Assembly (NCBI GenBank): GCA_964456855.1
Contig: CAYWCU010000002.1
Location: forward strand, 792-64,791
DNA length: 64,000 nucleotides
Direction: 5' to 3'
Source of the DNA: an uncultured Candidatus Saccharibacteria bacterium
Lineage (GTDB): Bacteria > Patescibacteriota > Minisyncoccia > UBA9983
Shown here: one piece after another, positions 37,764 through 61,243 of the stretch
Layout: each line of letters begins with the position of its first letter
Numbering within the stretch: the first letter of the stretch is position 1
Program-made: the position numbers and the translations under genes
Notes under the pieces: model-generated
Told to the model about the DNA's origin: nothing
Databases searched by the model: none
What the model saw: the letters and a program-made list of their open reading frames with translations, nothing else

Positions 37764-39569
37764 ATGGAGGCAAAAAATATAAGAAATTTCAGCATAATAG
37801 CTCACATTGACCACGGGAAATCCACTTTGGCGGACAGGATTTTGGAATTGACCGGCACCATTGAAAAGAGGAAAATGCAGGAGCAGATTTTGGACCAAAT
37901 GGAATTGGAACGCGAAAGAGGAATCACGATTAAAATGCAGCCCGTGCGAATGAACTATCAGCTATCAGCTATCAGCTATCAGCTTAACCTGATTGACACC
38001 CCCGGGCATATTGATTTTTCTTACGAAGTTTCCCGCGCCTTGAAAGCCGTTGAAGGAGCCGTTCTTTTGGTGGATGCCACCCAGGGCGTGCAGGCGCAGA
38101 CAATCAGCAACGTGGAAATGGCGAAGTCAATGGGGCTGACAGTTATTCCCGTTCTTAATAAAATGGACCTTCCTTCCGCGAACGCCGAAGAATCCAGAGA
38201 GGAAATAAAACGGCTGTTGGAAGGAGAAGGCGCGGAAGAAATAAAAATAATGGAAATATCCGCAAAAACGGGACAAGGCGTGAAAGAACTGCTAGAGGAA
38301 ATAATCGCGCGCGTTCCTCCCCCGAAATACGAATACAAGGACAGGCCGAGGGCGCTTATTTTTGATTTTGAATATTCAAACCACCAAGGGGTAATCGTTT
38401 ACGCGAGAATTATGGACGGAAAAATCAAAAAAGGAGATGAGCTCATCCTCTCTCAAACGAAAGAAAAATTCATTGTCGGAGAAGTGGGAATATTCAGCCC
38501 GCAGAAAAAATCTTGTGATGAATTATCCGCCGGGGAAATAGGATATATAGTAACCAATGTTAAAAAACCGAGTATCGCCGCCGTCGGAGATACTCTTGTT
38601 TCGCCGACCAACCCCCTCCCTCCTTTGCCCGGATATTGCAAACCGAAACCAGTCGTTTGGGCGAGTGTTTATCCTGATTCGCAAAATGATTTTAACAACC
38701 TTCGCCAGGCATTGGAACGCTTAAGACTTTCGGACAGTTCCCTCGCCTTTGAGGAAGAAACGAGTGGCGCTTTGGGAAGAGGTTTCCGCTGTGGTTTCCT
38801 CGGAATGCTTCATCTTGAAATAATAACCGAACGGCTTAGGCGCGAATTCAATTTAAACATTATTATCGCCGCTCCAACCATCAGCTATAAAATCCTTTTC
38901 ACGGACGGAACTGAGAAAGAAATATATTCACCCACTTTTTTCCCGGACGAAAACAGGATAAAGAAAATTTTTGAACCTTGGGTTGATATGGAAATTATGA
39001 GCCCGCCCGAAAAACTCGGGCCAGTGATGCAGCTTCTGCACGAACACGAGGCGGAAGTCGGAGAAATGAAGCAATTCGGAAATCACCGGACAATTCTAAA
39101 CGTGAAAATGCCGTTACGGGAACTGATGAGGGGTTTTTTTGACGAACTCAAAAGCGCGACAGCCGGCTACGCATCATTGAATTATAAAATTAATGAAATG
39201 CGGGAAGCTCCAGTCGGCGGAATACTAAAAATGGAGGTGCTTGTCGCCGAAGAGCCGGTGCCGGCCTTCGCGCGAATCGTAAGTAAAAAGCGCGTGCAGA
39301 AAGAAGCGGAAGAAACGGTGGAGAAATTGAAAAATATTCTTCCCCGGACGCTTTTTTCAATCAAAATTCAGGCGAAAGCCATGGGCAAAATACTGGCATC
39401 AAGATCGCTAACGGCAATGAAAAAAAATGTTACCGCTCATCTTTACGGAGGGGATATAACGAGAAAAATGAAATTGAGAGAGAAACAAAAAAGAGGAAAG
39501 AAGCGTATGAAAGAAATGGGAAAAGTTAACATTCCTCAAGAAGTGTTTGTGAAAATGGTTCAAAAATAA
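37764..39569 (+). CDS. lepA: translation elongation factor 4 (LepA)
   Basis: NFSIIAHIDHGKSTLADR, DTPGHIDFSYEVSRAL, NKMDLP, the LepA-specific C-terminal domain, 601 aa. Contains a (CTATCAG)x4 heptamer tract at 37955-37986 encoding YQLSAISYQL. Confidence 0.95.
   Translation: MEAKNIRNFSIIAHIDHGKSTLADRILELTGTIEKRKMQEQILDQMELERERGITIKMQPVRMNYQLSAISYQLNLIDTPGHIDFSYEVSRALKAVEGAVLLVDATQGVQAQTISNVEMAKSMGLTVIPVLNKMDLPSANAEESREEIKRLLEGEGAEEIKIMEISAKTGQGVKELLEEIIARVPPPKYEYKDRPRALIFDFEYSNHQGVIVYARIMDGKIKKGDELILSQTKEKFIVGEVGIFSPQKKSCDELSAGEIGYIVTNVKKPSIAAVGDTLVSPTNPLPPLPGYCKPKPVVWASVYPDSQNDFNNLRQALERLRLSDSSLAFEEETSGALGRGFRCGFLGMLHLEIITERLRREFNLNIIIAAPTISYKILFTDGTEKEIYSPTFFPDENRIKKIFEPWVDMEIMSPPEKLGPVMQLLHEHEAEVGEMKQFGNHRTILNVKMPLRELMRGFFDELKSATAGYASLNYKINEMREAPVGGILKMEVLVAEEPVPAFARIVSKKRVQKEAEETVEKLKNILPRTLFSIKIQAKAMGKILASRSLTAMKKNVTAHLYGGDITRKMKLREKQKRGKKRMKEMGKVNIPQEVFVKMVQK
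37955..37986. repeat. heptanucleotide tandem repeat (CTATCAG)x4 within lepA
   Basis: ctatcagctatcagctatcagctatcagctta, in frame. Confidence 0.85.
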
Positions 39570-39635
39570 CCAAGAAAAAATGTTGGGGAAATGGCGTAAA
39601 AAGCCTTTTTTGGGTTTATCCACAGGCGAAACCTG

Positions 39636-40772
39636 TTGATAAAAAAACAAGAGGAGTATAATGGAAGTATGAACAAGGGAAAGGCAGAGAAAACAACAAA
39701 GAAAAAACGACCCAGCGCCATTAAGCTCGCGCGAAGCGCGAAGAATCCGATAATTTCTCCAAGAGGAGAAAATGTATGGGAAAACAGACAGACTCTTAAC
39801 CCAGGAGCAATCTTATTGTCCGGCAAAATTCATATTCTTTACAGAGCGATGGGAGACGATTGGCTTTCCCGTTTGGGATACGCCTCTTCCAAAGACGGCG
39901 TTACGATTGACGAACGATTGCTTTACCCAGCCTATGAACATAAAATTTCTCGTCCCGGCTTCAGTTTTTATTCTTGCTCATCGGGAGGCAGTTTCGGAGG
40001 CATTGAAGACCCCCGCCTTATTCGCGTGGGGAATGAAGATACCATACATATGATTTATACCGCTTGCGACGGAGGATTGCGAGTGGGTTTGACTTCTATA
40101 AAAGTGGATGATTTTCTCCAAAAGAAATGGAATTGGAAATCATCCAAAATAATTTCCAAACCGGGAGAGGTTCACAAAAACTGGGTTATTTTCCCAGAAA
40201 AAATAAAAGGAAAATACGCCATTCTTCATAGCATAAGTCCGGAGATTTTGGTGGATTATGTTGATGACTTGGATTTTAAAGACGGAGCGTATATTGAGAG
40301 TTTATGCGGGAACAGATTATATATGGAGGGGGCGAAAAGAATCAACTGCTGGGATAATTGGGTGAGAGGGGCGGGGGCACCGCCGATTAAGACTCGGCTT
40401 GGCTGGCTTCTCCTTTATCAGGCGATGGAGGAAAAAAGCCCTGATAAATTCAAAGTCGGAGCGATGGTTCTTGATTTGAAAGATCCAACCAAAATCCTTT
40501 ATCGCGCCAAAGAGCCTATCCTTGAACCCAAGGAAGCTTACGAAAATAACGGCTTTAAGTCGGGCGTGGTTTATGTGACCGGAGCGGTCGTAAAAAACGG
40601 CGAGCTCTTGGTTTATTACGGCGCCTCGGATAGTTATGTCGGTCTCGCCAAAGCCAATTTGGAAGAATTTTTGAAAGCGCTTTCAAAAGAGAAAAAATCA
40701 AAACCAAAACTCAAATCAAAGAAGAATGATGAGAAGACGAAGACGGAAAAAAAGAAAGGGAAGGTCAAATAA
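39636..40772 (+). CDS. GH130-family glycoside phosphorylase/hydrolase-like protein with a Lys-rich C-terminal tail
   Basis: KNPIISPRGENVWENRQTLNPGAILLSGKIHILYRAMGDD ... GIEDPRLIR ... GAPPIKTRLGWLLLYQAM (GH130/DUF377 beta-propeller). Tail KEKKSKPKLKSKKNDEKTKTEKKKGKVK. Confidence 0.75.
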   Translation: MIKKQEEYNGSMNKGKAEKTTKKKRPSAIKLARSAKNPIISPRGENVWENRQTLNPGAILLSGKIHILYRAMGDDWLSRLGYASSKDGVTIDERLLYPAYEHKISRPGFSFYSCSSGGSFGGIEDPRLIRVGNEDTIHMIYTACDGGLRVGLTSIKVDDFLQKKWNWKSSKIISKPGEVHKNWVIFPEKIKGKYAILHSISPEILVDYVDDLDFKDGAYIESLCGNRLYMEGAKRINCWDNWVRGAGAPPIKTRLGWLLLYQAMEEKSPDKFKVGAMVLDLKDPTKILYRAKEPILEPKEAYENNGFKSGVVYVTGAVVKNGELLVYYGASDSYVGLAKANLEEFLKALSKEKKSKPKLKSKKNDEKTKTEKKKGKVK

Positions 40773-40773
40773 T

Positions 40774-42696
40774 ATGATTATTGAAAGGTATAAAAAAAAT
40801 CCGATACTGACGCCGAACAGCGACCAATCGTGGGAGGCGGAGGCTGTCTTTAATGGTTGTCCGGCTGTAAAGGGTGATAAAACCTTTCTCCTTTACCGCG
40901 CCATTTCTCTCCCCCATTATCATATGGTGGCAAAAACAAGACTTACCGTTTCAGACATCGGAATCGCGGAAAGCAAAGATGGCATCAATTTTACAAACCG
41001 AAGAAGATTCATTATTCCGGAACAGGAATGGGAAAAATTCGGATGCGAAGACCCTCGGGTAACAAAACTGGGCAGTAAGTATTATATCTTTTACACGGCT
41101 CTTTCAGGGTGGCCGCCAAACGCGGAGAGCATCAAAGTAGGACTCGCCATCAGCAAGGACTTGGAGACAATATCCGAGAAACACCTCGTTACACCCTTTA
41201 ACGCCAAGGCAATGGCACTTTTTCCCGAAAAGATTAACGGAAAAATATGGGCGGTTTTGACGGCAAACACCGACCAACCCCCGGCAAAAGTGTGCCTCGC
41301 CTCTTTCAACAAAGAGGAAGACATTTATTCCGAGAAACTCTGGAGCAAATGGTATCAAAATATTGATAAACACGCATTGCCGCTTCAAAGACGACCGCAA
41401 GATCTGGTTGAGGTCGGCGCTCCGCCGATAAAAACAAAATGGGGATGGCTTTTGATTTATTCTCACATCAAAAATTACTATTCAGACAAGAGACTTTTCG
41501 GAATAGAAGCGGTGTTGCTTGATTTGAAAAATCCGCGCAAAATCATCGCTCAAACCGACTTCCCCTTTCTTTATCCGGAAGAATATTACGAAAAACACGG
41601 CATGGTGCCGAATGTCATTTTTCCATCAGGGGCATTGTTGAAAAAAAACAGAATTTTCCTTTATTATGGGTCAGCCGACACCAGTTGCTCATTGGCTTTT
41701 ATTGAAGCGAAAGCCTTTATTGAAAAATTCGTTAAAAAGGACATCGTCTTGACGAAATTGAAAAGGGCAAAGGGAAACCCGATTATAATTCCGAATGAAA
41801 ACCACCCGTGGGAAGCGAAAGCGACCTTTAATCCCGCGGCAATCTACCTTGGCGGGGATGTTCACATCCTCTATAGAGCGATGGGAGAGGAAAACACTTC
41901 CGTCTTCGGCTACGCTCGGAGCCGGGATGGTGTTCACATTGATTACCGTTCGGAAGAACCCGCCTATGTTCCAAGAGAGCCGTTTGAAGAGAAACTCCAG
42001 CCGGGAGGAAATTCGGGCTGCGAAGATCCTCGCCTCGTAAAACTGGGAAATAAAATATATGTATTCTACACCGCCTATGATGGGAAAAATCCTCCGCGCG
42101 TAGCTTTAAGTTGGATTACCTCAACCGATTTTCTGAAGCAAAAATGGAACTGGTCCCGTCCAACCCTTATTTCCCCTCCCGGTATTGACGACAAAGACTC
42201 GGCGATGTTTCCGGAAAAAATCAAAGGTAAATATTTGATAATTCATCGCAGTGGAGACGATATTGACCTTTCTTTCAATAAAAGTTTGGAATTTGACGGA
42301 ACCCACTGGCTGGAAGAATACCGCTGGCTGATGCCGAGAAGAGGGTGGTGGGACTCCAGAAGGGTGGGGATTGCCGCTTCTCCGATTAAAACCGCCACCG
42401 GATGGCTCCTGCTTTACCACGGGATTTCTGAAGACGACGGAGTTTACCGCGTCGGAGCGGTGCTCACCGATTTACGCGATCCTATAAAAATCATCAGCCG
42501 CACGGATTATCCGATTTTTGAACCGGAAGCCGATTATGAAAAGGAGGGGTTGGTCAATAATGTTGTTTTTCCTTGCGGGGCGGCGCTAATCGGCAAAGAA
42601 CTGTTTGTTTATTACGGAGCAGCCGACAAAGTAACGGGTGTGGCGTCGGTAAACATTAATAAGCTTCTTGATATCCTTAAATTATGCAAATGCTAA
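40774..42696 (+). CDS. protein with two tandem GH130 domains
   Basis: Two copies of the NPI(L/I)xP..xxWEAxAxFN...LYRA...CEDPR...GAPPIKT..GWLL(I/L)Y pattern. The start was set to MIIERYKKNPIL (40774) rather than the Arg-rich track start 40726. Confidence 0.75.
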   Translation: MIIERYKKNPILTPNSDQSWEAEAVFNGCPAVKGDKTFLLYRAISLPHYHMVAKTRLTVSDIGIAESKDGINFTNRRRFIIPEQEWEKFGCEDPRVTKLGSKYYIFYTALSGWPPNAESIKVGLAISKDLETISEKHLVTPFNAKAMALFPEKINGKIWAVLTANTDQPPAKVCLASFNKEEDIYSEKLWSKWYQNIDKHALPLQRRPQDLVEVGAPPIKTKWGWLLIYSHIKNYYSDKRLFGIEAVLLDLKNPRKIIAQTDFPFLYPEEYYEKHGMVPNVIFPSGALLKKNRIFLYYGSADTSCSLAFIEAKAFIEKFVKKDIVLTKLKRAKGNPIIIPNENHPWEAKATFNPAAIYLGGDVHILYRAMGEENTSVFGYARSRDGVHIDYRSEEPAYVPREPFEEKLQPGGNSGCEDPRLVKLGNKIYVFYTAYDGKNPPRVALSWITSTDFLKQKWNWSRPTLISPPGIDDKDSAMFPEKIKGKYLIIHRSGDDIDLSFNKSLEFDGTHWLEEYRWLMPRRGWWDSRRVGIAASPIKTATGWLLLYHGISEDDGVYRVGAVLTDLRDPIKIISRTDYPIFEPEADYEKEGLVNNVVFPCGAALIGKELFVYYGAADKVTGVASVNINKLLDILKLCKC

Positions 42697-43055
42697 ACAA
42701 AACAAAACAATCAAAGGAGTTTGAGTTGGTTAAAAAACCGTGGGGCGCTTACTTGATTTTGGAAAAACATCCGGACTATTGGATTAAAAAACTTTTTGTA
42801 AATGAGGGGGAAGAATTAAGCCTTCAAAGCCATAAAGAAAGAGATGAAATATGGATGGTTCTAAGAGGAAAAATTGACGCCCTGAGGGGAAGCAAACACT
42901 TTATCCTGAAAGAAGGAGATTTCATAAAAATAAACAAAAGGGAAAAGCACAGGATTCTCGGCCTGAAAAAATCATGTGTTATGGAGGTGGCTTTTGGGAG
43001 ACCAAGAGAAAGAGACATTATCCGTTATAAAGATAAATACGGCAGGATTAAATAA
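42684..43055 (+). CDS. cupin-domain protein (mannose-6-phosphate isomerase type II C-terminal cupin-like)
   Basis: KPWGAYLIL ... GEELSLQSHKERDEIWMVLRG ... GDFIKINKREKHRILG. Confidence 0.7.
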   Translation: MQMLNKTKQSKEFELVKKPWGAYLILEKHPDYWIKKLFVNEGEELSLQSHKERDEIWMVLRGKIDALRGSKHFILKEGDFIKINKREKHRILGLKKSCVMEVAFGRPRERDIIRYKDKYGRIK

Positions 43056-43213
43056 TCGCGAGAATGGGCGGAAAAGCGCCCAAAGAACTAAAAAAGAGGG
43101 GCGATTAAGAAAAGAACCATACCGACTACAGCGAGAAGGCTCACCGCCGTCCAGATAAATTGGTATCTTCTTTTTTGCCTTTTTGTTTTCATAAAAGTTA
43201 TAATACTCCTTAT

Positions 43214-43603
43214 ATGCGAGAATTTCAAGAGAGAAAAAAAATACAAAAAAAAATCTTTTCACCTTTTGCGCTTGCGGCTCTTTTAATTCTCTTTCTTTTT
43301 TTGACCGTCTCAACGGCAAAAATGTATTTAAAGAGAAGAGCGGCGGCGGAAAAAAACAGAATAACCGAACGGCAACTTGTTGAAATCAAAGAAAAGAACG
43401 CGGAAATGAAAAAAGAAATAGAGCGCCTGCGAAGCGATTTTGGGAAGGAAGCGGAAATACGGAAAAAATTTAATGTTCAAAAACCGGGCGAGAAAGTAAT
43501 TGTGATAGTGGACAAAGTGCCGGAAAAAGATAAAATAAATCCAGAGAAAAAAGAGAGCGGTTTTTTCTCGGGCATTTTCAGAGCGATAAAAAATATATTT
43601 TAG
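43214..43603 (+). CDS. FtsB/DivIC-like septum formation initiator (TM + coiled coil)
   Basis: Single TM FALAALLILFLFLTV followed by a coiled coil (QLVEIKEKNAEMKKEIERLRSDF). Start at ATG 43214. Confidence 0.5.
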   Translation: MREFQERKKIQKKIFSPFALAALLILFLFLTVSTAKMYLKRRAAAEKNRITERQLVEIKEKNAEMKKEIERLRSDFGKEAEIRKKFNVQKPGEKVIVIVDKVPEKDKINPEKKESGFFSGIFRAIKNIF

Positions 43604-43968: not shown

Positions 43969-44166
43969 ATGTCCAACATTTCAAAAAATTTACGAAAAGC
44001 AAGAGAGAAAAAAGGTTTGTCGCAGGAGCGATTGGCACGGTTGGCAGATGTTGCTAATAACACCATAATCAAACTTGAGGCGGGCAAAAATCAAAATCCC
44101 ACGCTGGATACTTTGCAAAAAGTATCCAGAGCATTAGAAATGAGTGTTGATAATTTAATTAAATAA
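43969..44166 (+). CDS. XRE-family HTH transcriptional regulator (candidate controller C-protein)
   Basis: LRKAREKKGLSQERLARLADVANNTIIKLEAGKNQNPTLDTLQKVSRAL is a Cro/CI-type HTH. Located 4 nt upstream of the nuclease gene. Confidence 0.7.
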   Translation: MSNISKNLRKAREKKGLSQERLARLADVANNTIIKLEAGKNQNPTLDTLQKVSRALEMSVDNLIK

Positions 44167-44170
44167 TATT

Positions 44171-45052: not shown

Positions 45053-45059
45053 AAATAAT

Positions 45060-45710: not shown

Positions 45711-45723
45711 TAATATATAACTT

Positions 45724-46551
45724 ATGAAAAAAGAATTTATCGTAAAAAATGTAAATATAAATTTTTTCTCTCAAAAAGAGGAAGATTTTATTTCGCTGAC
45801 TGATATTGCGAAATACAAGAACGCAGAAGCCCCTGCTGATGTGGTAAAAAATTGGCTTAGATCAAAAAATACCATTGAATTTCTTGGTTTTTGGGAAAAA
45901 ATTAATAATCCAAATTTTAAACTGGTCGAATTTGACCAGTTTTGGAAAAATGCTGGAACAAATGCTTTTGTTCTTTCTCCTAGCAAGTGGATAAGCACCA
46001 CAAACGCGATTGGTCTTATTTCAAAATCTGGAAGAAATGGTGGAACTTTTGCTCACAAAGATATTGCTTTTAAATTTGCATCTTGGATTTCTGCAGAATT
46101 TGAGTTGTATATAATTAAAGAATTTCAAAGACTTAAAGAAGATGAAAATGAACGATTACTACTTGGTTGGGATGCAAAACGAACACTAACAAAAATAAAT
46201 TATAAAATTCATACTGATGCGATAAAAAAGCATATTATTCCTCAATTAGTCACAAAAAAGGAAACTAAATTTATTTATGCAAATGAAGCCGATGTTTTAA
46301 ATGTCGCTCTTTTTGGAATGACAGCCAAACAATGGCGAGAGAAAAACAAAGGCAAAAAAGGTAATGTCCGTGATGAAGCAAATGTATATCAACTTGTTTG
46401 TTTGGCTAATTTGGAAAGTATGAATGCCGAACTTATTCGACAAGGAATTTCACAACCTGAAAGATTGAAACAATTAAATAAAATAGCAATTATTCAAATG
46501 CAGTCACTTGTTGAAAATAAAACTGTTAAAAAACTTTCATCTAGAAATTAA
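45724..46551 (+). CDS. KilA-N domain protein (phage-associated)
   Basis: ISLTDIAKYKN ... VKNWLRSKNTIEFLGFWE ... GTFAHKDIAFKFASWIS has KilA-N/APSES-like domain features. Confidence 0.6.
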   Translation: MKKEFIVKNVNINFFSQKEEDFISLTDIAKYKNAEAPADVVKNWLRSKNTIEFLGFWEKINNPNFKLVEFDQFWKNAGTNAFVLSPSKWISTTNAIGLISKSGRNGGTFAHKDIAFKFASWISAEFELYIIKEFQRLKEDENERLLLGWDAKRTLTKINYKIHTDAIKKHIIPQLVTKKETKFIYANEADVLNVALFGMTAKQWREKNKGKKGNVRDEANVYQLVCLANLESMNAELIRQGISQPERLKQLNKIAIIQMQSLVENKTVKKLSSRN

Positions 46552-46572
46552 GGATGTTTAATTTAAAAATAA

Positions 46573-46851
46573 ATGAAAGATACAGATTGGATTTTTGGAC
46601 TTTGCAAAGGCAAAGAAAGATTGAAAGATGAAAATGGAATAAAAGCACACCCTACACAAAAACCGCTAAAACTCATTCAGCAAGTTTTGCTTTCTGCAAG
46701 TAATAAGGGCGACATAGTTTTTGACCCATTTATGGGAAGTGGCACAACTGCGATTGTTGCCGAAGCACTTGGGCGAAAATGGTTTGGAATTGAGAAAGAT
46801 AAAAAATATGTCGCACTTGCCGAAAAAAGAATAGAATTTATAAAAAAATAA
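46573..46851 (+). pseudogene. C-terminal fragment of a beta-class N6A/N4C DNA methyltransferase (orphan remnant)
   Basis: HPTQKPLKLIQQVL ... FDPFMGSGTTAIVAEALGRKWFGIEKD contains the HPTQKP and FxGSGTT (motif I) elements. The DPPY catalytic region is missing because the ORF is only 92 aa. Confidence 0.7.
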
Positions 46852-46853
46852 TT

Positions 46854-47894
46854 ATGACAGAAGATTTTCCAAATTTAGATATCTATAGAAAAATCTTTAC
46901 TTTTCATGACTCTATTGTGAATAGAATTGTTTCAAGAGAAAGTAGTTGGCTTGAATTTAAAGAATCATTTAACTGGGGCTCTAAGGATAGATATGCAAAA
47001 AGTATAGCCGCTTTTGCCAATAATAAAGGTGGTTATATCGTATTTGGAATAAAAGATTTACCTCGTGATTTAGTTGGATTGCAAAGTAAAAATTTTGAAA
47101 CAATTGACGAAGCAAAAATAACAGACTACCTAAATAGTGTTTTTGCGCCAGAAATAATATTTAGTAAATTTGTAATAAAACTAAAATCTAAAGAAATTGG
47201 TATTTTACAAATTTTAGAAACTACTAACAAACCGTTAGTTTGTCTGAAAAATGACGGTGTGTTAAAAGAGGCAGAAATATATTATCGTTATAATTCAAGA
47301 AGTGAAAAAATAAAGTATCCAGAACTTATAGAATTATTTGAGCAAGTAAGAAAAGACGAGAGAAAAAGTTGGATGGAACATTTTGAAAAGATATCGAAAA
47401 TTGGTCCAGAAAATACTGCAATATTTGATACCATTAGCGGTAAAATAAGTGGTAAAAGTGGTACGCTTATTATAGATAAAAAACTTATCCCAAAATTAAA
47501 ATTTATTAACGAAGGAAAGTTTCGTGAGCATGGTAAACCTGTACTGAAATTAGTCGGTAGTGTAAAACCAGTCCTTATGACCAATAAAGCTAACAATGTT
47601 GGATTTCAGATAACGAATGATTTAAGAGCTCCAAAAGTTAGACTTGTCGAAGAAGAAATATTAAAAACAAAATATCCGTTTGACTATAATGAGCTCACAA
47701 TGAAATTGATTGCGAGATATGCTGATTTTGTACGAAATGCCAAATATCATAAATTACGAAAACGATTTATGAAAAATGAGAATTTATGTAAGACGCGATA
47801 TCTTGACCCAAAAAATTTAAAGGGTAGTAAAAAAGATTTTTATAGTCCTAAAATAATACAAGGATTTGATAAACATTATCAAAAGAGAAAATAA
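46854..47894 (+). CDS. AlbA_2 (Schlafen-like, PF04326) domain protein
   Basis: ESSWLEFKESFNWGSKDRYAKSIAAFANNKGGYIVFGIKD is the AlbA_2 signature. Long C-terminal region of unknown function. Confidence 0.55.
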   Translation: MTEDFPNLDIYRKIFTFHDSIVNRIVSRESSWLEFKESFNWGSKDRYAKSIAAFANNKGGYIVFGIKDLPRDLVGLQSKNFETIDEAKITDYLNSVFAPEIIFSKFVIKLKSKEIGILQILETTNKPLVCLKNDGVLKEAEIYYRYNSRSEKIKYPELIELFEQVRKDERKSWMEHFEKISKIGPENTAIFDTISGKISGKSGTLIIDKKLIPKLKFINEGKFREHGKPVLKLVGSVKPVLMTNKANNVGFQITNDLRAPKVRLVEEEILKTKYPFDYNELTMKLIARYADFVRNAKYHKLRKRFMKNENLCKTRYLDPKNLKGSKKDFYSPKIIQGFDKHYQKRK

Positions 47895-48299
47895 AGGGAG
47901 CAATGCTTGCGCGCGCATTGGGTGGGTGGGGCAAGCGCAATATGATTTGCTTGTGCTATCCGTTGCGTGATAGCACAATCCTTTTTCTTTTTTCTTTCCT
48001 TACAACTCACACAAAACTATAACCGAAGCCACTGAGCGAGCCACGAGAACACCGAGCAGGCATTACGAACGAAGTGAGTAGCCATGCGAGGTGTTTCTCG
48101 TTGGCGAGTGTACTCTCAAGTTACCACAATCGTAGCGCCACAGTTCGCAAAGGAATGGAAAAATGGCGAGTGTGTTGCGTAAGCAACAAAACTTGTTTTA
48201 ACGAGCCATTTTGGAATGACTGTAGCGAACCCGAACGACAAAACCATTTCCTTACCTTTCTTTCTTTTTCGGTGGAGGGGTCTGGGGAGGAGCCGAACA

Positions 48300-48432
48300 A
48301 CAAATTGAAAGGCTCCCGTTTTGTTCAAAAGGCGTTTAGCCGATTGAATACAAAACGCAGTGCCTGTGGTGAAATTTTGGTTTTGGTCGGGCGGCTCGCC
48401 GAGTGGAGCGAGGCGAGAGTGGCACGGTCGTA
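48300..48432. repeat. right terminal inverted repeat of the island, within a GC-rich structured non-coding stretch (47895-48640)
   Basis: Reverse complement gccactctcgcctcgctccactcggcgagcc ... ttcaccacaggcactgcgttttgtattcaatc ... gaacaaaacgggagccttt. Confidence 0.7.
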
Positions 48433-48576
48433 TTGCAGGAGTTACCACTAAACTCTCCTAGCGGAGAGAGTGGTCAGAATTACCACAGGCTCTCGCCGTG
48501 GAGAGCGTGCCGTCGCAACGGCACGCATTAGACAGCACGCACTCCGCGCGTTCCTCTTTGTTAATACGATTTGTTT

Positions 48577-48633
48577 TGAAAATAGGTTCGGATTTGGTAA
48601 AATAGAGGCACCAGAACAGAACTCGTCCGCCTT
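48577..48633. repeat. attR-like degenerate copy of the tRNA-Gly 3' half plus downstream 17 nt
   Basis: ataGGTTCGGATTtggtaaaatagagGCACCAGAACAGAACTCGTCCGC versus the tRNA end acGGGTTCGATTcccgtatcccGCACCAGAATAGAACTCGTCCGC. Confidence 0.6.
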
Positions 48634-48756
48634 TGGCGGGCTTTTTCTATTCTGGTGTGTTTATTGTACCAATATCAAACTTTCGGATTTTTAACTTTTC
48701 ATGGGTAGGGCGGGCTAAAAACGAAAAAGGAGCTCTTTGCGGAGCTCCTTTTGGTT

Positions 48757-51286: not shown

Positions 51287-52237
51287 ATGCTTATCGCAAA
51301 TGAAAAAGAAATGGAAGAGTTTCTGAGCAAGCTCAAATCAGAGTTTAAGTTTTATGATGAAAAAAACGAGGCTCCGCGAGGAGGAATGAATTTTAAAAGA
51401 CATTTTTTCCCGGCCAGACAAGAAACTTTCTCAAAAACGGAAGCGGGCGGAATTGTAACCCCCGAGGCTCCCGAAGAATTTATTGTTTTCGGCTTAAATC
51501 TTCCCGACCTTGAGGCACTCACCTATTTTGACGAGATAATGAAAAACCCAAACGAAGATTTTTATTATCTCAGAAACAGAGAGCGGTCAATTGTTATCGG
51601 GTTAATTCAAGAGGAGATTGACGCGCAACCGGGAGGAGATATTATTTTTCAAGATATCGGTGGCGGACGATATAAGGTTTGGCAAAATACGGACAAAGGG
51701 AAAGATTTGATTAAAAAACACAAAAAGTTTTTTGAAGAAGTTGAGGACGATAACAAGAAAAACGCCCCGCAAATCCCGGAAAACAAATCACTGGGTGAGT
51801 GGTCGCAGTCAATGCGCGCGCTACTTGTTGACCCAGAGCTTTTGGCGAAAGCGGTGGAATGGTCGCATGACCATCCGATTTGGGATGAACTTGGAAAAAG
51901 GTGCTTGGGATGCGGGATTTGCACCTATGTCTGCCCCATCTGCTATTGCTTCTCAATTGAAGACAGTGTCGGGCTGGACGGCAGTTGCAAGCGATGCAGA
52001 AAGTGGGACGCGTGCACGCTTCCCGAGTTCGCGAAAATCACCGGGGGACACAGTTTCCGCCCGACGATAAAGGAGAGATATTATAACTGGTTTTACCATA
52101 AGTTTGTCAGGGCGTATAATGAATATGGGAGATCGCAATGTGTGGGGTGCGGTCGGTGCAAAAAATTCTGCCCGGCAAGTATTGATATTTACGAGGTGTT
52201 GTCTGTAATTTTAAAAGATTATAAGAATAGTCGGTAG
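51287..52237 (+). CDS. 4Fe-4S dicluster protein, sulfhydrogenase beta (HydB) / AsrA-like
   Basis: CLGCGICTYVCP and CVGCGRCKKFCP ferredoxin motifs in the C-terminal third. Confidence 0.6.
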   Translation: MLIANEKEMEEFLSKLKSEFKFYDEKNEAPRGGMNFKRHFFPARQETFSKTEAGGIVTPEAPEEFIVFGLNLPDLEALTYFDEIMKNPNEDFYYLRNRERSIVIGLIQEEIDAQPGGDIIFQDIGGGRYKVWQNTDKGKDLIKKHKKFFEEVEDDNKKNAPQIPENKSLGEWSQSMRALLVDPELLAKAVEWSHDHPIWDELGKRCLGCGICTYVCPICYCFSIEDSVGLDGSCKRCRKWDACTLPEFAKITGGHSFRPTIKERYYNWFYHKFVRAYNEYGRSQCVGCGRCKKFCPASIDIYEVLSVILKDYKNSR

Positions 52238-52268
52238 CCGGTATGTCGGTGGCCAAACAAAAAAACAG

Positions 52269-52934
52269 ATGAGTTTTGAAAAAACCGAATTTGAATCCAA
52301 GCCAAAGATTGAGATTGAGGAAAGTTTCCGCGAATTCCTCCCCGAGGAATTCGCGAACGACCCAATGGGTTATTTTGAAAAAGAAGGCGAGAAAATAAAA
52401 AAAGGGGAAATAAAGTATGCGGAAGAAGGCAGAATCCGAGAAGATCCGACATGCGTAAAAGATCTACCCACATGGACGGGCAAAAAGGGATCCGAATTAC
52501 GCGCGGTGGGGAAAAAAGTGAACATAATAAAAGGACAAGTGGGCAGAACAGGCAATCCTTTCCATGAATACGAGGTGATGAAGATTGTTGACGAGTTGGG
52601 CTTGCCTTGCGCGAGACCGATATTAAAAGCGAAGCAAGGAGAAAATTACTTGATTATAACGGAAAAAATCCCGGGCACGCGTTGGACGGAAAGAGACCTT
52701 TTGAAATTAAAATCAGAATTGAAGCAAGAGGGTTATTCAGATGAAGACATTGAAGACTTAAAGGAGCAGGCCGAAAAACAAATGGAAGAAATGAAGAAAA
52801 AATTTGCCGAGATGGGAATCATGCGCAAATGGAAACTGAATGACATGGTTTTTGACATAGATATTAAGAACAAGAGGATTAGAAAAATAACGCCAACCGA
52901 CTGGGAACGCACCGAAATTATAAAAGACCGATAG
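52269..52934 (+). CDS. hypothetical protein with a degenerate protein-kinase-like (RIO/Kdo-kinase-like N-lobe) fold
   Basis: NIIKG...EYEVMKIVDELGLP...NYLIITEKIPG resembles a kinase N-lobe and hinge. The catalytic-loop position reads WKLNDMVFDI instead of HxDLxxxN. Confidence 0.3.
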   Translation: MSFEKTEFESKPKIEIEESFREFLPEEFANDPMGYFEKEGEKIKKGEIKYAEEGRIREDPTCVKDLPTWTGKKGSELRAVGKKVNIIKGQVGRTGNPFHEYEVMKIVDELGLPCARPILKAKQGENYLIITEKIPGTRWTERDLLKLKSELKQEGYSDEDIEDLKEQAEKQMEEMKKKFAEMGIMRKWKLNDMVFDIDIKNKRIRKITPTDWERTEIIKDR

Positions 52935-52999
52935 AGTCAATGGTAGCTAGCGGGATTAGCTGATAGTGACCAGCTAAATAGCTTGTAGAAAAAAATATT

Positions 53000-53827
53000 A
53001 TGAACAACATTTACGAACCACAATTAGTTAAAATAACAAAGATTGAAGAACAGTCGCCGACCGTGAAGTTGTTTCGGCTGGAAAAAATTGACGGCAAATT
53101 TAAAAAAGACGAAGACGGGCTCGTTTTCCGACCGGGGCAGTTCGTGATGGTCGGACAAATCGGATACGGCGAGTCGCCACTTGGTCCCCTTTCTTCTCCC
53201 TATGAGGATAAATATATTGAAATCGCAGCGCGCAAGGCGGGAACCGTGACGAGTTATCTGCACTCACTGAAGGAGGGTGATGAAATCACTCTTCGCGGAC
53301 CGCTCGGGAACGGATTTCCTCTGGAATTTATGGAGGGCAAGGATGTTGTGTGCGCCACAGGGGGATGCGGAATTCCTCCGATTGCCGCTCTTGTTGAATA
53401 TATGGTTGAAAACAAAGAAAAATTCGGGAGAATTTATGTGCTTTACGGAGCGAAAACTCCCGATGAATTGTTGATGAGAGAGAAAATGAAAGATTGGGAA
53501 AAAGAAGGCGTAAAAATAATTTTAACGATAGACAAACCGAATAAAAACTGGAAGGGTCCCGTCGGTTTTGTAACGGATTTGGTCAAAGAGATAGAAGTTG
53601 ACGAAGTGAACGCGGTCGCCACAATGTGCGGTCCGGGACCGATGGTCGGAGCCTTGGAAAAGGTTTTGCGGCCACTCGGAATTTCCGACAGAAGAATCTT
53701 CGTCAGTATGGAAAGAAAAATGCAGTGCGGAGTCGGCAAATGCCAGCACTGCACCACCGGCAAAAAATATGTTTGCCTTGACGGTCCGGTGTTTAATTAT
53801 GATGAAATAGAGAATAATAAAGATTAG
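53000..53827 (+). CDS. FAD/NAD(P)-binding oxidoreductase with a C-terminal 2Fe-2S cluster, sulfhydrogenase gamma (HydG) / PyrK-like
   Basis: RPGQFVMV, GGCGIPP (NAD-binding), C-terminal CGVGKCQHC. Confidence 0.7.
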   Translation: MNNIYEPQLVKITKIEEQSPTVKLFRLEKIDGKFKKDEDGLVFRPGQFVMVGQIGYGESPLGPLSSPYEDKYIEIAARKAGTVTSYLHSLKEGDEITLRGPLGNGFPLEFMEGKDVVCATGGCGIPPIAALVEYMVENKEKFGRIYVLYGAKTPDELLMREKMKDWEKEGVKIILTIDKPNKNWKGPVGFVTDLVKEIEVDEVNAVATMCGPGPMVGALEKVLRPLGISDRRIFVSMERKMQCGVGKCQHCTTGKKYVCLDGPVFNYDEIENNKD

Positions 53828-53895
53828 TAATTATGGGTTTCCGCCCAAGGCGGATGCTCATAATTTAACAATTCACCCGCGGTGAATTAAAAATT

Positions 53896-54651
53896 ATGGC
53901 AAAACCAAAAATAGCAATATATGATTTTACGGACTGCGAAGGATGCGAGGTAAAACTCGTTTCTTTGAGGGAGCGACTTTTGGCACTTGAACAAAAGATA
54001 GACATCGTAAACTGGAGATTGGGACAGGAGCATTTTGAACCAGGTCCTTACGACATTACGATTATAGAGGGCACGCCCATTCACAAAAACGAAATCACTT
54101 TATTGAAAGAGTTGCGCGAAAATTCAAAGGTTTTGGTGGCGCTCGGAGCCTGCGCCGCCTTGGCGGGGATCCCCGGCATAATGCCGGAAAAAGACAGGAA
54201 GATTTGGTACGAGAAAATTTATTCTTCGCAATACAAACCGGTGGGAGTGGACGCGGTGCCTCTGTCCGCCTATGTGGATGTTGATTTCGCCATTCACGGA
54301 TGTCCGGTTGACGAGGACGAGGTGGTGAGAGTTTTTGAAGAATTGCTCGCCGGAAAGACGCCAAGTTACCGAGGGTTCTCCGTTTGTTTTGACTGCAAAC
54401 AGGCGGGCAATCCGTGCAGAATAGCGGAAGAAAAAAAGCCGTGTATGGGTCCGATTACCCAAGGAGGATGCAAAGCGATTTGCGTTTCCGGCGGCTCGCC
54501 ATGCTACGGATGCTTCGGAATCCGCGAGGAGGCGAACATTCCCTCGCTTGTAAAAATATTGAAAAAAATCGCGGACAAAGAAACCGTTGAACGATATCTC
54601 ACAATGTTCCACAGCAGAACTCCGGAAATCAAAGAACATTTGAAAAAATAA
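53896..54651 (+). CDS. NiFe-hydrogenase small-subunit-like protein (HydD/MvhG-like)
   Basis: KIAIYDFTDCEGCEV, GACAALAGIPG, HGCPVDEDE, and a C-terminal Cys cluster CKQAGNPC...CMGPITQGGCKAICVSGGSPCYGCFG. Confidence 0.65.
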   Translation: MAKPKIAIYDFTDCEGCEVKLVSLRERLLALEQKIDIVNWRLGQEHFEPGPYDITIIEGTPIHKNEITLLKELRENSKVLVALGACAALAGIPGIMPEKDRKIWYEKIYSSQYKPVGVDAVPLSAYVDVDFAIHGCPVDEDEVVRVFEELLAGKTPSYRGFSVCFDCKQAGNPCRIAEEKKPCMGPITQGGCKAICVSGGSPCYGCFGIREEANIPSLVKILKKIADKETVERYLTMFHSRTPEIKEHLKK

Positions 54652-54768
54652 AAAATCTAAAAAATTGTCCCCCCTTGATTAAACCGCCTAAAAAGAGTAA
54701 GAATTAAGAGAGGATTCAGCACCCTGACAAATAAATCCCACCAAGTGGAATGAATAGAGGGGGAAAAA

Positions 54769-54975
54769 TTGGTAACAATAAGGAACAAAAAGGCGAAAAG
54801 GATAATCAGAGAAACAGGTTATCTGCATGATTGTATTGTGCAGGGAGACCTTGATTTGTCCGATTTTGATGAAGTGAAAATAGAATATGTAGTAATAAGA
54901 GGAGATTTGAAGGTGCGACAAGCCGGATTGTGTCTTCATTTTTGCGAAATATCGGGGAATCTGCATCTCAAATAG
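54769..54975 (+). CDS. small hypothetical protein (TTG start), paralog of 55033-55365
   Basis: Shared pattern TG.L.DC.V.G.L.LSDF plus repeated G(D/N)L motifs. Both genes have a conserved ~45 nt leader (aaaaagagtaagaattaagagagRattcagcacMctgacaa) upstream. Confidence 0.4.
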   Translation: MVTIRNKKAKRIIRETGYLHDCIVQGDLDLSDFDEVKIEYVVIRGDLKVRQAGLCLHFCEISGNLHLK

Positions 54976-55032
54976 TGCTCAAAAAGAGTAAGAATTAAGA
55001 GAGAATTCAGCACACTGACAATTCCATAGGAG

Positions 55033-55365
55033 GTGGAAATGGGAACCATAAACAGCGAGGAAGCAAAAAAGAGGATCTCAAAGACAGGGCGCTTGGCGGA
55101 CTGCTCCGTTAATGGAAATCTGAATCTCTCAGATTTCCATTATATCAAGAAAATTGTCTTAACGGACGTGACTGTCAATGGAAACCTAACGGTCGGGTCA
55201 AAGGGCCTCTATCTTTATTACACAAAGATAGAGGGGGACATATACCTTGAAGAAAAGGAGATGGATTACTTTGAGTCATTTTACTCAAAGTGCAAAATTC
55301 TCTTTTTGGAGGGGGTGCGGGTGAAGAGCCTGCATTTAAAAATGAGAATAAAGAATATAATGTAA
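55033..55365 (+). CDS. small hypothetical protein, paralog of 54769-54975
   Basis: Strong RBS aggaggtggaaATG. Repeated GNLNLSDF / GNLTVGSKGL units suggest a short beta-solenoid. Confidence 0.45.
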   Translation: MEMGTINSEEAKKRISKTGRLADCSVNGNLNLSDFHYIKKIVLTDVTVNGNLTVGSKGLYLYYTKIEGDIYLEEKEMDYFESFYSKCKILFLEGVRVKSLHLKMRIKNIM

Positions 55366-55440
55366 AACAAAAAGTCGGCGCGATTAGCCGACTTTTTTTA
55401 ATCTTATTTATTTTATCCGGTCGCGACAATGCCAACTGTT

Positions 55441-56358
55441 CTATTTTTTCCGTTCCTGAAATTTATACATCGTGACCAGCAACGGAGAGGCGAGAAATAC
55501 CGATGAATAAGTTCCGGCTGCGACTCCTATGATAAGCGCCAATGAAAAGAATTTCGTTGTTTCGCCCCCAAAGAAGAATACCGCCCCCAAGACGAGCAAT
55601 ACTGTCAACGAGGTGTTAATTGAACGAGTGAGCGTTTGGTGAACACTAACACTAACTGTGTCTTCAAAACCGTCGCCTATCTTTCTGTGCAGGTTCTCGC
55701 GAACCCTGTCAAAGACGACAATTGTGTCGTGAACTGAAAAACCTAAAATGGTAAGGAGCGCCGTTACAAACAAAACATCCACCTCCGCTCCAAAATATTT
55801 CCCTAAAATGGCAAACACTCCGAGTGGCAACATTACATCGTGGAAAAGCGCCACAATCGCCATTAAGCCGTATTTGAACGAAGAAACAGGTCTTGAAACA
55901 CTGCGGAAAACAAAGGCGATATAGAGGATAATCATCAAGACCACCAAGGCGATGGCAATCCATGATTTTTGGCGAAGTTCCTTGCCTATGACCGGACCGA
56001 TTGAATCAAAACGAAGTTCCTTCAGTTGGGTTTTTCCCGAGGCTTCGGCTCCGGAGTTCCCGAGACGAAGCGCCACCAAGAGTTTCTGGTGCTCGTCATT
56101 GCTAAGATTTTTTGAACGAATAATCAAACCATTTTCTCCCGTAGGTTGAACAATGGCGTTTTCCAAATTAATATTGGTCAATTCCTGTTTAATTATTGAT
56201 ACATCAGGTCTTGGGCTTTGATACTCAATTTCCACAAGCGAACCGCCGGTAAAATCAATACCCCAATTGAGTCCGAAGTAAAAAACTGAAAATATGCTGG
56301 CGAAAACAAAGATTCCCGAGATAGTGTACCAAATTTTTCTGTGTTTGATGATATTCAT
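55441..56358 (-). CDS. secF: protein translocase subunit SecF
   Basis: SecF topology and the SecD/SecF C-terminal TM bundle (LLTILGFSVHDTIVVFDRVREN). Confidence 0.9.
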   Translation of the reverse strand: MNIIKHRKIWYTISGIFVFASIFSVFYFGLNWGIDFTGGSLVEIEYQSPRPDVSIIKQELTNINLENAIVQPTGENGLIIRSKNLSNDEHQKLLVALRLGNSGAEASGKTQLKELRFDSIGPVIGKELRQKSWIAIALVVLMIILYIAFVFRSVSRPVSSFKYGLMAIVALFHDVMLPLGVFAILGKYFGAEVDVLFVTALLTILGFSVHDTIVVFDRVRENLHRKIGDGFEDTVSVSVHQTLTRSINTSLTVLLVLGAVFFFGGETTKFFSLALIIGVAAGTYSSVFLASPLLVTMYKFQERKK

Positions 56359-56363
56359 TTTTT

Positions 56364-57683
56364 TTAATTTCTAATTCCGCTTCCCATTAAAAATCGGCTG
56401 AATTTGTTATCTCCTTTAATTCCCAATGCCAACAAAAAAGTTCTGGAGATGGTAATCGCGGAAAACATACTGACTAAAACTCCAATTCCCAAAGTGAGCG
56501 CAAATCCTTTAACCATACTTGTTCCCATCCAATAAAGGATAGTGGCGGAAATCAAACTAGAGGCGTTTGAATCGCGTATGGAAAGCCACGCGCGGGAAAA
56601 TCCTTCGGTTATTGCGGCTGAAAAAGATTTTCCTTCCTGACGCTCCTCTTTCATTCGCTCAAAAATAAGGATATTGGCATCAACGGCCATACCGACGGAA
56701 AGAATAAATCCGGCAATTCCGGCGGAAGTAAGAGTAACGGGGATGAGTTTGAATATCGCCAAAACCAATATAGTATAAATCGCCAACGCCAGAACGGAAA
56801 TCAATCCGGGGAGGCGATACCAAAGAATAAGGAATATCGCCACTAAAATAATACCGTAAATTCCCGCCCTAATTCCTTTAAAAAGTATCTTCTCTCCGAG
56901 AGTCGGTCCAACGCTTTGTTGAGAAATAAGGGCGATGGGAACCGGGAGAGCTCCGGAATTTAAACGCTGAACCATAGTCTTGGCTTCTTTCGCCGTAAAC
57001 TGCCCTGTAATTTGAGCTTTTCCCCCCGTAATCTCATCTCTTATTACCGGGGTGGTTATCGGGACGCCGTCCAAAAATATAGCCAGTTTCTTGCCAATGT
57101 TGTTTTTTGTTATCTTGGCAAAAAGTTCCGCTCCTTTTTTATTAAAATCAAGAGTAACATAAGGTTCAAATGTCGTCTGGTTAAAATCAAGACGGGCTTT
57201 GCTTAAAAATCTTCCGGTCAACCCGGTCGGCAAAAAGACTTTATTGATGTCCGATCCTTCGGCAGCTTTAACATTCGGATTTTCCAGACGGAATTCAAGA
57301 AAAGGGGTTTCTCCTATCATTTTAATCGCTTGATTGACATTCGTAACACCCGGCAATTCAATGATAAGCCGCTGTTCCCTCTGCCCCACCGTCTTTAGAA
57401 TTCCCTTTTCCTCAACCTGCACCAAAGGTTCGGCGACACCGAAAAGATTGACGCGTCTTTCAATAACATCCCGCAACCCTTCCATCGCCCCGGAAATTTC
57501 AGCCGGCTTTATGGCGGACACATCGGCTCTGTAAACCAAATGGACTCCTCCCTGAAGGTCAAGTCCGAGTTTAAACGGCTTGGAAAATACTGAATTCGGA
57601 TTAACCGTATGCAAAATATCAAAATAGCCGACAATGATGCCGGTTAAAATAAGAAAAACCGCAATAATCCTGTATTTGGCCAT
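56364..57683 (-). CDS. secD: protein translocase subunit SecD
   Basis: GLDLQGGVHLVY..., periplasmic domains, C-terminal TM bundle (MAVDANILIFERMKEE). Confidence 0.9.
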   Translation of the reverse strand: MAKYRIIAVFLILTGIIVGYFDILHTVNPNSVFSKPFKLGLDLQGGVHLVYRADVSAIKPAEISGAMEGLRDVIERRVNLFGVAEPLVQVEEKGILKTVGQREQRLIIELPGVTNVNQAIKMIGETPFLEFRLENPNVKAAEGSDINKVFLPTGLTGRFLSKARLDFNQTTFEPYVTLDFNKKGAELFAKITKNNIGKKLAIFLDGVPITTPVIRDEITGGKAQITGQFTAKEAKTMVQRLNSGALPVPIALISQQSVGPTLGEKILFKGIRAGIYGIILVAIFLILWYRLPGLISVLALAIYTILVLAIFKLIPVTLTSAGIAGFILSVGMAVDANILIFERMKEERQEGKSFSAAITEGFSRAWLSIRDSNASSLISATILYWMGTSMVKGFALTLGIGVLVSMFSAITISRTFLLALGIKGDNKFSRFLMGSGIRN

Positions 57684-60108: not shown

Positions 60109-60651
60109 ATGAGAATAAACGCAAAGAAAGGATTTACGCTGATTGAGTTGCTGGTGGTTATCGCCATCATAGGGTTGCTTTCCAGTATCGTTATGGTGTC
60201 GTTGCGTAAAGCGAGAATGAAGGCGCGGGACGCGCAAAGGATTGAGAATTTAAGTCAAATGCGAACGGCGATTGAATCTTACGCCAATGACCATGGAAAA
60301 TATCCGCCAACTCCTTACTATAGAAACTATTATTCAAGCACGGACGAAAGTTCATGGAATGAATTTCAAAACTTATTGAAACCTTATCTGTCAAAGCTTC
60401 CCAAAGACCCCGTCAATAACGGTAACCCAGAGATTACCGGCAATTATTCTTATTTCTATCAATCCAACAGCTTTCTTGGAGAATATGACCTGATAACGCA
60501 ACTTGAAAACAAAGACAATGGAAATCGCTGCGAATTAAAGTGTTGGAGATATCACAGTAGCGGATCGCCGGAAGCGTCATGGTGCAAAGGGAGCCCTTTG
60601 TGCGGAAGCCCTTCGTGGCCAAACAGCCCCTACATCTACGCGGACCATTGA
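60109..60651 (+). CDS. type IV pilin / pseudopilin with prepilin N-terminal cleavage-methylation domain, tandem paralog 1
   Basis: KKGFTLIELLVVIAIIGLL (class III signal with Gly-Phe cleavage site and Glu+5). TATAAT at 60096-60101. Confidence 0.85.
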   Translation: MRINAKKGFTLIELLVVIAIIGLLSSIVMVSLRKARMKARDAQRIENLSQMRTAIESYANDHGKYPPTPYYRNYYSSTDESSWNEFQNLLKPYLSKLPKDPVNNGNPEITGNYSYFYQSNSFLGEYDLITQLENKDNGNRCELKCWRYHSSGSPEASWCKGSPLCGSPSWPNSPYIYADH

Positions 60652-60691: not shown

Positions 60692-61243
60692 ATGAGAATA
60701 AACGCAAAGAAAGGATTTACGCTGATTGAGTTGCTGGTGGTTATCGCCATCATAGGGTTGCTTTCCAGTATCGTTATGGTGTCGTTGCGCAAAGCGCGGA
60801 TGAAAGCGCGGGACGCGCAAAGGATTGAGGATTTAAGTCAAATGCGAACGGCGATTGAATCTTACGCCAACGACCATGGAAAATATCCCCCACCTCCGCC
60901 ATTCAGTAGCTTCGCTTCCAGCGCCACCCCCTCTCAGTGGAACTACCTTCAAAATTTGTTGAAACCTTATTTGCCGAAGCTCCCCAAAGATCCTATCAAT
61001 AATAACGCCGAAACTTACATAACGGGAAACTATTCATATCTTTATTTGGTTAGCGGTGTCAACAGAACAAACTATGATTTGATAACGCAATTTGAGGATA
61101 AGAACAATGAAAACCGTTGCGAATTAAAATGCTGGAGGCGTTATAGCCTAGAGGTGGCAGAAAAGCCGACATGGTGCCAGGGTAATCCCCTCTGTGCCCC
61201 GCCACGAGGAGTATCCAGTCCATATATATACGCGAATCACTAG
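60692..61243 (+). CDS. type IV pilin / pseudopilin, tandem paralog 2
   Basis: N-terminal ~75 aa are near-identical to paralog 1 (2 substitutions, N47D and M28L), including the upstream 40 nt. The C-terminal half diverges but keeps CELKCWR ... C..PLC Cys pairs. Confidence 0.85.
   Translation: MRINAKKGFTLIELLVVIAIIGLLSSIVMVSLRKARMKARDAQRIEDLSQMRTAIESYANDHGKYPPPPPFSSFASSATPSQWNYLQNLLKPYLPKLPKDPINNNAETYITGNYSYLYLVSGVNRTNYDLITQFEDKNNENRCELKCWRRYSLEVAEKPTWCQGNPLCAPPRGVSSPYIYANH

Follow-up and report, generated by a model that had tools for sequence, protein, structure and literature searches.

A hydB-hydG-hydD cluster without an adjoining large-subunit gene points to a split group 3b [NiFe]-hydrogenase operon in the candidate phyla radiation

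Results

The DNA analyzed here, called the window throughout, is a 64,000-nucleotide (nt) stretch of contig CAYWCU010000002.1 (assembly GCA_964456855.1, positions 792 to 64,791, forward strand) from an uncultured Candidatus Saccharibacteria bacterium of the Patescibacteria, or candidate phyla radiation (CPR). It contains hydB, hydG, and hydD, the genes for the beta, gamma, and delta (small) subunits of a hydrogenase, with a 221-amino-acid (aa) open reading frame (ORF) between hydB and hydG. Two small ORFs, A and B, follow hydD, and beyond them lies the convergent pair secF-secD (Table 1). An earlier note on this DNA had read the three hyd genes as HydB-, HydG-, and HydD-like, with a gene inserted between beta and gamma and with two small paralogous genes and then secF downstream. 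The ORF list and family scans bore out these assignments and their coordinates, as well as the inserted gene and the downstream order, and placed secF-secD on the minus strand.

Table 1. Coordinates of features in the window and at compared loci. L numbers are our labels for the compared loci; IVP, intervening sequence protein.
Feature	Coordinates	Strand	Remarks
lepA ... divIC	37764..43600	+	Upstream synteny anchor of CPR hyd operons; used for comparison with relatives
hydB (beta subunit, AsrA-like, two [4Fe-4S] motifs)	51287..52237	+	Fer4_22, NCBIfam HydB
Recently exchanged tract	52251..52908	.	98.3% nt identity to L012 (460-1120)
221-aa gene, predicted protein-kinase-like fold	52269..52934	+	Lineage-specific insertion between hydB and hydG
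hydG (gamma subunit: FAD, NAD(P), [2Fe-2S])	53000..53827	+	Pfam and NCBIfam
hydD (delta, [NiFe] small subunit, 251 aa, "hyd1" type)	53896..54651	+	Pfam and NCBIfam
33-nt repeat, copy 1	54690..54722	+	Upstream of ORF A
Small ORF A, 68 aa	54769..54975	+	Paralog of ORF B
33-nt repeat, copy 2	54981..55013	+	Upstream of ORF B
Small ORF B, 110 aa	55033..55365	+	Paralog of ORF A
Bidirectional intrinsic-terminator hairpin	55369..55397	.	Ends the hyd and the convergent secDF units
secF-secD, convergent	55441..57683	-	In the place of hydA-hypC in relatives; rearrangement junction
Mur ligase genes at hyd loci	L013 5042-7629; L016 736-3353; L104 5520-6926; L105 2569-6006; L091 821-2116
23S rRNA IVP gene	L012 2073-2438; L006 7613-7978; L015 9618-9980

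In a Pfam scan, the 316-aa hydB product carried the C-terminal dicluster domain Fer4_22 (PF17179; E = 8.5e-30), and its NCBIfam matches were sulfhydrogenase HydB (1.6e-43), ShyB (6e-37), and AsrA of anaerobic sulfite reductase (4.5e-31). The 275-aa hydG product contained FAD_binding_6 (PF00970), NAD_binding_1 (PF00175), and DHODB_Fe-S_bind (PF10418) and matched the hydrogenase gamma subunit (9e-64) and AsrB (7e-62). The hydD product matched Oxidored_q6 (PF01058; 2e-20), ShyD (1.3e-48), and HydD (1.8e-44). Set against the cutoffs of the Pyrococcus equivalog models, HydB scored 149 versus 750 bits, HydG 176 versus 650, and HydD 166 versus 460. These scores are far under the cutoffs, and the matches are therefore assignments at the family level only. 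In an alignment of 28 sequences, all 12 cluster-ligand cysteines of HydD (C14, C17, C86, C136, C164, C167, C174, C183, C192, C196, C203, and C206, accounting for three Fe-S clusters) fell in invariant columns.

The earlier note had also stated that the catalytic large subunit, HydA, is not encoded locally, and this proved correct. All six frames of the 64 kb lack both the L1 motif (RxCGxCxxxH) and the L2 motif (DPCxxCxxH) of [NiFe] large subunits, a tblastn search of the window with two CPR HydA sequences and one HypC gave no match, and there is no hypC, hypD, hypE, or hypF gene within the window. In the 790 bp that separate hydD from secF, tblastn likewise detected no remnant of either hydA or hypC. 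Copies of the window's proteins found elsewhere were on sequences of only 9 to 21 kb, none reaching past the ends of the window.

To place the locus among its relatives, we scanned species-representative genomes with the HydD alignment and tallied neighboring genes by tblastn. The closest proteins were all from metagenome-assembled genomes (MAGs) of Patescibacteria/CPR (Campbellbacteria, Paceibacterota, and Terrybacteria). Nearly all of the ~70 Patescibacteria loci that could be judged had the order hydB-hydG-hydD-hydA with hypC nearby. Among them were the closest relatives L013 and L014 (93% and 92% HydD identity), which have kept hydA after hydD; in L014, hypC, hypD, hypE, and hypF come directly after hydA. 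Only five loci had no hydA following hydD: the window, L012 (Ca. Campbellbacteria SZUA-82; 97% HydD identity), L006 (contig 12 of GCA_054018655.1; 85% HydD identity), L062, and the archaeal locus L074. The window, L012, and L006 share a convergent secF-secD after hydD, the full order in L006 being hydB-hydG-IVP-hydD|secF-secD. Upstream of hydB, lepA-divIC is found in the window and also in L006, L008, L010, L014, L015, and L104. The position of secDF upstream of hydB in L021 raised the idea of a simple inversion of the hydBGD block. We rejected it because lepA-divIC has kept its upstream place in both the window and L006; only the downstream junction has changed.

Two of the five loci differ from the window at this junction. 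L062 (JAHISW010000048.1) reads hydG-hydD-pilM...PrsW-leuS, and hydB was not detected. In L074 (CAZPLO010000004.1, from an archaeon), hydB-hydG-hydD is followed by a convergent larA and by 10 kb without hydA. Across the two loci, the stretch past hydD that is free of hydA spans 6 to 10 kb.

We estimated selection on the hyd genes by comparing the window with L012, both of which are without a local hydA. The ratio of nonsynonymous to synonymous divergence (dN/dS) was 0.043 for hydB, 0.056 for hydG, and 0.021 for hydD, at a synonymous divergence (dS) of 0.89 to 0.96. The neighboring secD and secF were as constrained as the hyd genes (0.03 to 0.05), and folD and glyA were looser (0.11 to 0.15). 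HydD, with 97% aa identity to its L012 counterpart, is the most constrained gene product of the locus. HydD docks onto the large subunit and wires it electrically to the rest of the complex. We conclude that hydB, hydG, and hydD are under very strong purifying selection and are not decaying. That hydA was deleted and the three remaining genes are decaying might have been suspected from the local absence of hydA and hypC, and from L062, where hydB is apparently gone as well. However, the reading frames are intact, all cofactor motifs have been kept, dN/dS is 0.02 to 0.06 over a dS of ~0.9, and the arrangement persists in L012 and L006. Decay is thus extremely improbable and effectively refuted.

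We then searched for the missing large subunit with the closest available HydA as the query. The same MAG that contains L006 (GCA_054018655.1) encodes a HydA (P0217) on its contig 1, JBPLYR010000001.1 (268 kb), in the order aminotransferase-murD'-HD-murC'-hydA-x-hypD-hypE-<hypF-<hypC-grx...PrsW-leuS. Both motifs of this HydA are intact (RICGVCPIAH and DPCITCSVH), and its contig has no hydB, hydG, or hydD. The L006 contig and the hydA contig have unusually high GC contents (0.505 and 0.519), and among 87 loci neither has a better tetranucleotide match than the other (r = 0.97).

Candidate hydA loci also co-occur with the window operon and with L012. One HydA (P0194, locus L091) is encoded on VAPB010720562.1 in the order NUDIX-murC'-hydA-hypC-DUF3977-x-hypD-hypE; its assembly is a sibling of VAPA01, where the window operon occurs as an exact copy. 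A second HydA (P0313, locus L096), 94% identical to P0194 and in the same context, is encoded on Ga0063293_10044459; the metagenome of origin is the one that yielded L012 (Ga0063293_10017066). The two hydA genes differ by a dS of 0.96 with an omega of 0.035, which matches the divergence between the window and L012 at hydB, hydG, and hydD. At the L091-type locus, NUDIX is preceded not by hydD but by the end of an unrelated Ser/Thr-rich ORF. The murC' of L091 has as its orthologs the murC' genes that immediately precede hydA in L013, L016, L092, and L105. This orthology indicates that the ancestral order in the subclade was hydD-murD'-murC'-hydA and that the break separated hydD from the mur genes. 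Genes for Hyp proteins stand beside hydA in L091, L105, L014, and L092.

Several observations weigh against a split operon with its hydA at one of these loci. The same-MAG split in L006 depends on binning, with composition in support. The placement of L091 in the window's own genome is circumstantial, the link resting on sibling assemblies, on matching source patterns with NCBI and Logan as sources and longest contigs of 74.6 and 67.9 kb, and on matching divergence; tetranucleotide similarity between L091 and the window does not discriminate (r = 0.93; rank, 23 of 87). The sequence upstream of NUDIX in L091 and L096 extends for only 200 to 370 bp, so that a hydD farther away is possible; a metagenome scan with P0194 yielded no longer contig for the NUDIX-murC'-hydA locus. 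The same project also includes other CPR organisms with complete operons (L099). Finally, a tree of HydG plus HydD puts L006 outside the clade of the window, L012, L013, and L014 (bootstrap, 100), and in LepA the window, L006, and L014 form a three-way split that is not resolved. Gene tree and gene order are thus discordant: L006 shares the hydD|secF junction, whereas L013 and L014, inside the clade, keep hydA. The junction arose either once, with later discordance (through a shift in rate or GC along L006 or through recombination among the hyd genes), or twice.

If the large subunit were truly absent, HydB, HydG, and HydD could have been repurposed, as the earlier note had suggested, into a HydA-independent NAD(P)H:acceptor oxidoreductase such as a polysulfide or sulfur reductase. 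The sulfur-reductase activity of the Pyrococcus sulfhydrogenase lies in the beta-gamma module, which is related to AsrAB. The homology of HydB and HydG to AsrA and AsrB would fit such a role, as would the 64 kb without hydA or any hyp gene, the lack of hydA past hydD in L062 and L074, and the strong purifying selection, which implies that the genes do something. In contrast, the best-conserved subunit is HydD, whose role is docking to the large subunit and which has retained all 12 cysteines; each of the two hydA-less hydBGD loci (the window and L012) has a co-occurring intact hydA-hyp locus that is under selection; and a hydA-hyp locus is present in the same MAG as L006. We regard repurposing as unlikely; it is not needed to explain the locus, and the dN/dS of hydD argues against it. 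The other suggestion of the earlier note, a large subunit encoded elsewhere, gains support from the L006 MAG and from the co-occurring candidate hydA loci. We conclude that the window probably holds the hydB-hydG-hydD part of a CPR "hyd1"-type group 3b [NiFe]-hydrogenase whose operon is split.

The 221-aa ORF belongs to no Pfam or NCBIfam family; its best Pfam match, Kdo, had an E value of 0.038, short of the cutoff for significance, and a sequence-profile comparison with the PDB found no relatives among solved structures. We also considered a phage or defense gene, and there was no PHROG or PADLOC match. Homologs formed 71 clusters, all from CPR, and an exhaustive profile search for the domain gave 167 representatives. 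The domain either stands alone at ~220 aa or forms the C terminus of many proteins of 900 to 1600 aa. The large proteins (P0393-P0452) have no other Pfam domain, and one further protein (P0328) fuses the 221-aa domain to a HATPase_c (histidine-kinase-like ATPase) domain.

An AlphaFold2 model of the 221-aa protein was confident (predicted local distance difference test score [pLDDT], 89; predicted template modeling score [pTM], 0.83). The top 50 Foldseek matches in the PDB were all kinases, RIO proteins, or aminoglycoside phosphotransferases (APH), including Wee1, CDC7, RIO2, EphA3, and APH, with probabilities of ~1.0 but template modeling (TM) scores of only 0.40 to 0.49. The model thus predicts, with confidence, a bilobal protein-kinase-like fold. 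K88, E100, D192, and D211 are invariant in 39 family sequences and would correspond to the β3 lysine, the αC glutamate, the catalytic-loop aspartate, and the metal-binding aspartate. D211 lies in a PTDWERT motif, the TDWE of which we take to resemble the IDWE/IDFE of kinases of the APH/choline kinase (ChoK) type. The fold and the four residues liken the protein to RIO, Bud32, and APH/choline-kinase-like enzymes; it differs from them in having no significant sequence match and no obvious glycine-rich loop. The earlier note had called the gene a degenerate, pseudokinase-like one. The kinase-like fold agrees with that description, but the invariance of the four residues does not suggest a dead enzyme, and the protein looks more like a minimal, possibly active kinase-like enzyme.

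As an insert in a hyd operon, the 221-aa gene was found in the window and L012 only, among ~80 operons. In this pair, a 658-nt tract spanning most of the gene has just 11 mismatches, and sliding identity shows both flanks to be ~85% identical; dS is 0.045 for the 221-aa gene versus 0.89 to 0.96 for hydB, hydG, and hydD. High identity amid diverged flanks indicates recent exchange or gene conversion of the gene independently of the operon. Its dN/dS was 0.69, on very few changes. Other genes found at the same or nearby junctions of hyd operons encode an amidohydrolase, a methyltransferase, MazG, four-helix 23S rRNA IVPs, and Mur ligases.

In this lineage, the 221-aa protein might serve the hydrogenase as a regulator or accessory component, for instance by phosphorylating a subunit or a small-molecule ligand. 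In favor of such a role, the gene lies on the same strand between hydB and hydG, with gaps of 31 to 65 bp and no terminator, and is hence probably cotranscribed. The invariant catalytic-type residues and the retention of the gene in both the window and L012 also favor it. However, no hydrogenase genes neighbor the homologs in L003 and L005 (a 917-kb genome and a 103-kb contig), only 2 of ~80 operons carry the gene, unrelated genes occupy the same or nearby positions in other operons, and the gene was recently exchanged, with a dN/dS of 0.69 on very few changes. We consider an accessory role improbable. A more elaborate proposal makes the gene a representative of an undescribed family of minimal, active kinase-like enzymes that is restricted to the CPR and passes from lineage to lineage by recombination; here the gene would have been recruited into the hydrogenase transcript to control the activity or assembly of an enzyme whose subunits come from separate loci; this appears decidedly improbable. 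We conclude that the 221-aa ORF is most likely not a hydrogenase accessory subunit; it belongs to a family that is spread across the CPR and mostly occurs apart from hydrogenases. The earlier note had named, as findings that would tell against its account, a hydA elsewhere with matching phylogeny and a known conserved accessory role for the 221-aa ORF; such hydA loci were found, whereas no such role was.

Insertions at hyd loci took other forms as well. Genes for MurD-like and MurC-like ligases recur within CPR hydrogenase genes or immediately ahead of them, in the hydD-hydA or the hydG-hydD interval; a class IV aminotransferase gene adjoins them in L105. A 120-aa 23S rRNA IVP (PF05635, a four-helix bundle) is encoded between hydG and hydD in L012, L006, and L015; the window is without it. 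Between lepA and divIC, the window has two tandem GH130 (mannooligosaccharide phosphorylase-like) genes (39636-42696); in relatives, divIC comes directly after lepA without this pair. CPR hyd operons commonly carry or tolerate many unrelated inserted genes.

The products of small ORFs A and B are 41% identical to each other and contain repeated units of the GDLxL/GNLxL type. Both ORFs stay open in L012, where the ortholog of ORF A is 67% identical; neither has a Pfam, PHROG, or PADLOC match. Each is preceded by a copy of a 33-nt repeat that occurs twice in the window, with no copies expected by chance. Gaps among hydB, the 221-aa gene, hydG, and hydD are 31 to 68 bp. The hairpin that follows ORF B has an 11-bp stem flanked by A and T runs on both strands and is the sole strong terminator, with nothing comparable directly after hydD; the transcription unit therefore plausibly includes both small ORFs.

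Elsewhere in the window, a tRNA-Gly(CCC) gene (43603-43676) is followed by a low-GC (~0.30) island of ~4.9 kb (43603-48630 with the tRNA gene) that encodes a TdeIII-type restriction endonuclease, an HNH nuclease, a KilA-N protein, a truncated N4/N6 DNA methylase, and a Schlafen/AlbA_2 protein. At its edges are the two copies of a 23-nt direct repeat (43671-43693 and 48608-48630; 22 of 23 positions identical), the first of which starts in the 3' end of the tRNA gene; they look like attachment (att) sites. No integrase was seen. At its distal end, an ORF-poor stretch of ~850 bp (47900-48750) has a higher GC content; an RNA gene was considered for it, and no Rfam match was obtained even at an E value of ≤1. 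Two adjacent type IV pilin-like genes with the N_methyl motif (60109-60651 and 60692-61243) encode proteins that are identical over ~45 N-terminal residues and then diverge; the pair looks like a recent tandem duplication.

Discussion

Group 3b hydrogenases of the CPR "hyd1" clade have beta and gamma subunits and a small subunit of ~250 aa, with variable gene context in which beta and gamma are not always adjacent (Jaffe et al. 2020, PMC7304191). The four-subunit CPR complex has been modeled, and its roles as hydrogenase versus sulfhydrogenase have been discussed (Valentin-Alvarado et al. 2024, PMC10811913). The window resembles hyd1 (HyhBGSL/HydBGDA) in having the beta, gamma, and ~250-aa small-subunit genes in the same order, and its products are 65 to 97% identical to those of dozens of Patescibacteria hyd1 operons, with which it shares the upstream lepA-divIC. 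It differs in that hydD has no adjoining large-subunit or hyp genes and in the extra kinase-like gene between hydB and hydG. What sets the window apart from known CPR hyd1 operons is the break between the small- and large-subunit genes. In the literature, we found nothing specific on splits between these two genes.

Two further systems invite comparison. The sulfhydrogenases I and II of Pyrococcus furiosus (HydBGDA/ShyBCDA) have the four-subunit architecture and supply the best NCBIfam matches of all three window proteins; they are distant homologs only, and the window's host is bacterial and mesophilic. With AsrAB, the likeness is the homology of HydB and HydG to AsrA and AsrB, but the window has no AsrC (the siroheme subunit) and does have an Oxidored_q6 hydrogenase small subunit.

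We propose that the subclade ancestrally had the order lepA-divIC-...-hydB-hydG-hydD-(murD'-murC')-hydA-hypC/D/E/F. In the lineage of the window, a rearrangement would have broken this order just after hydD, where the two small ORFs and convergent secF-secD are now found, and a murC'-hydA-hypC-hypD-hypE block would lie at a second locus outside the 64 kb. HydA would be matured by the Hyp proteins and would then join HydD despite the separate transcripts. Electrons would pass between NAD(P)(H) at HydG, with its flavin adenine dinucleotide (FAD) and 2Fe-2S cluster, and the NiFe site by way of the Fe-S clusters of HydB and HydD. A fermentative cell could in this way rid itself of reductant by forming H2 or, possibly, H2S from polysulfide. 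Both the 221-aa kinase-like gene and the two small ORFs would be passengers.

This arrangement bears on how CPR genomes are read. A hydBGD cluster without hydA on a CPR contig should not be taken to mean that the hydrogenase was lost or repurposed or that H2 metabolism is absent, since a second locus can hold the genes for catalysis and maturation. The genes for the small and large [NiFe] subunits need not be cotranscribed. The 221-aa kinase-like family offers a modest lead for CPR-specific biology.

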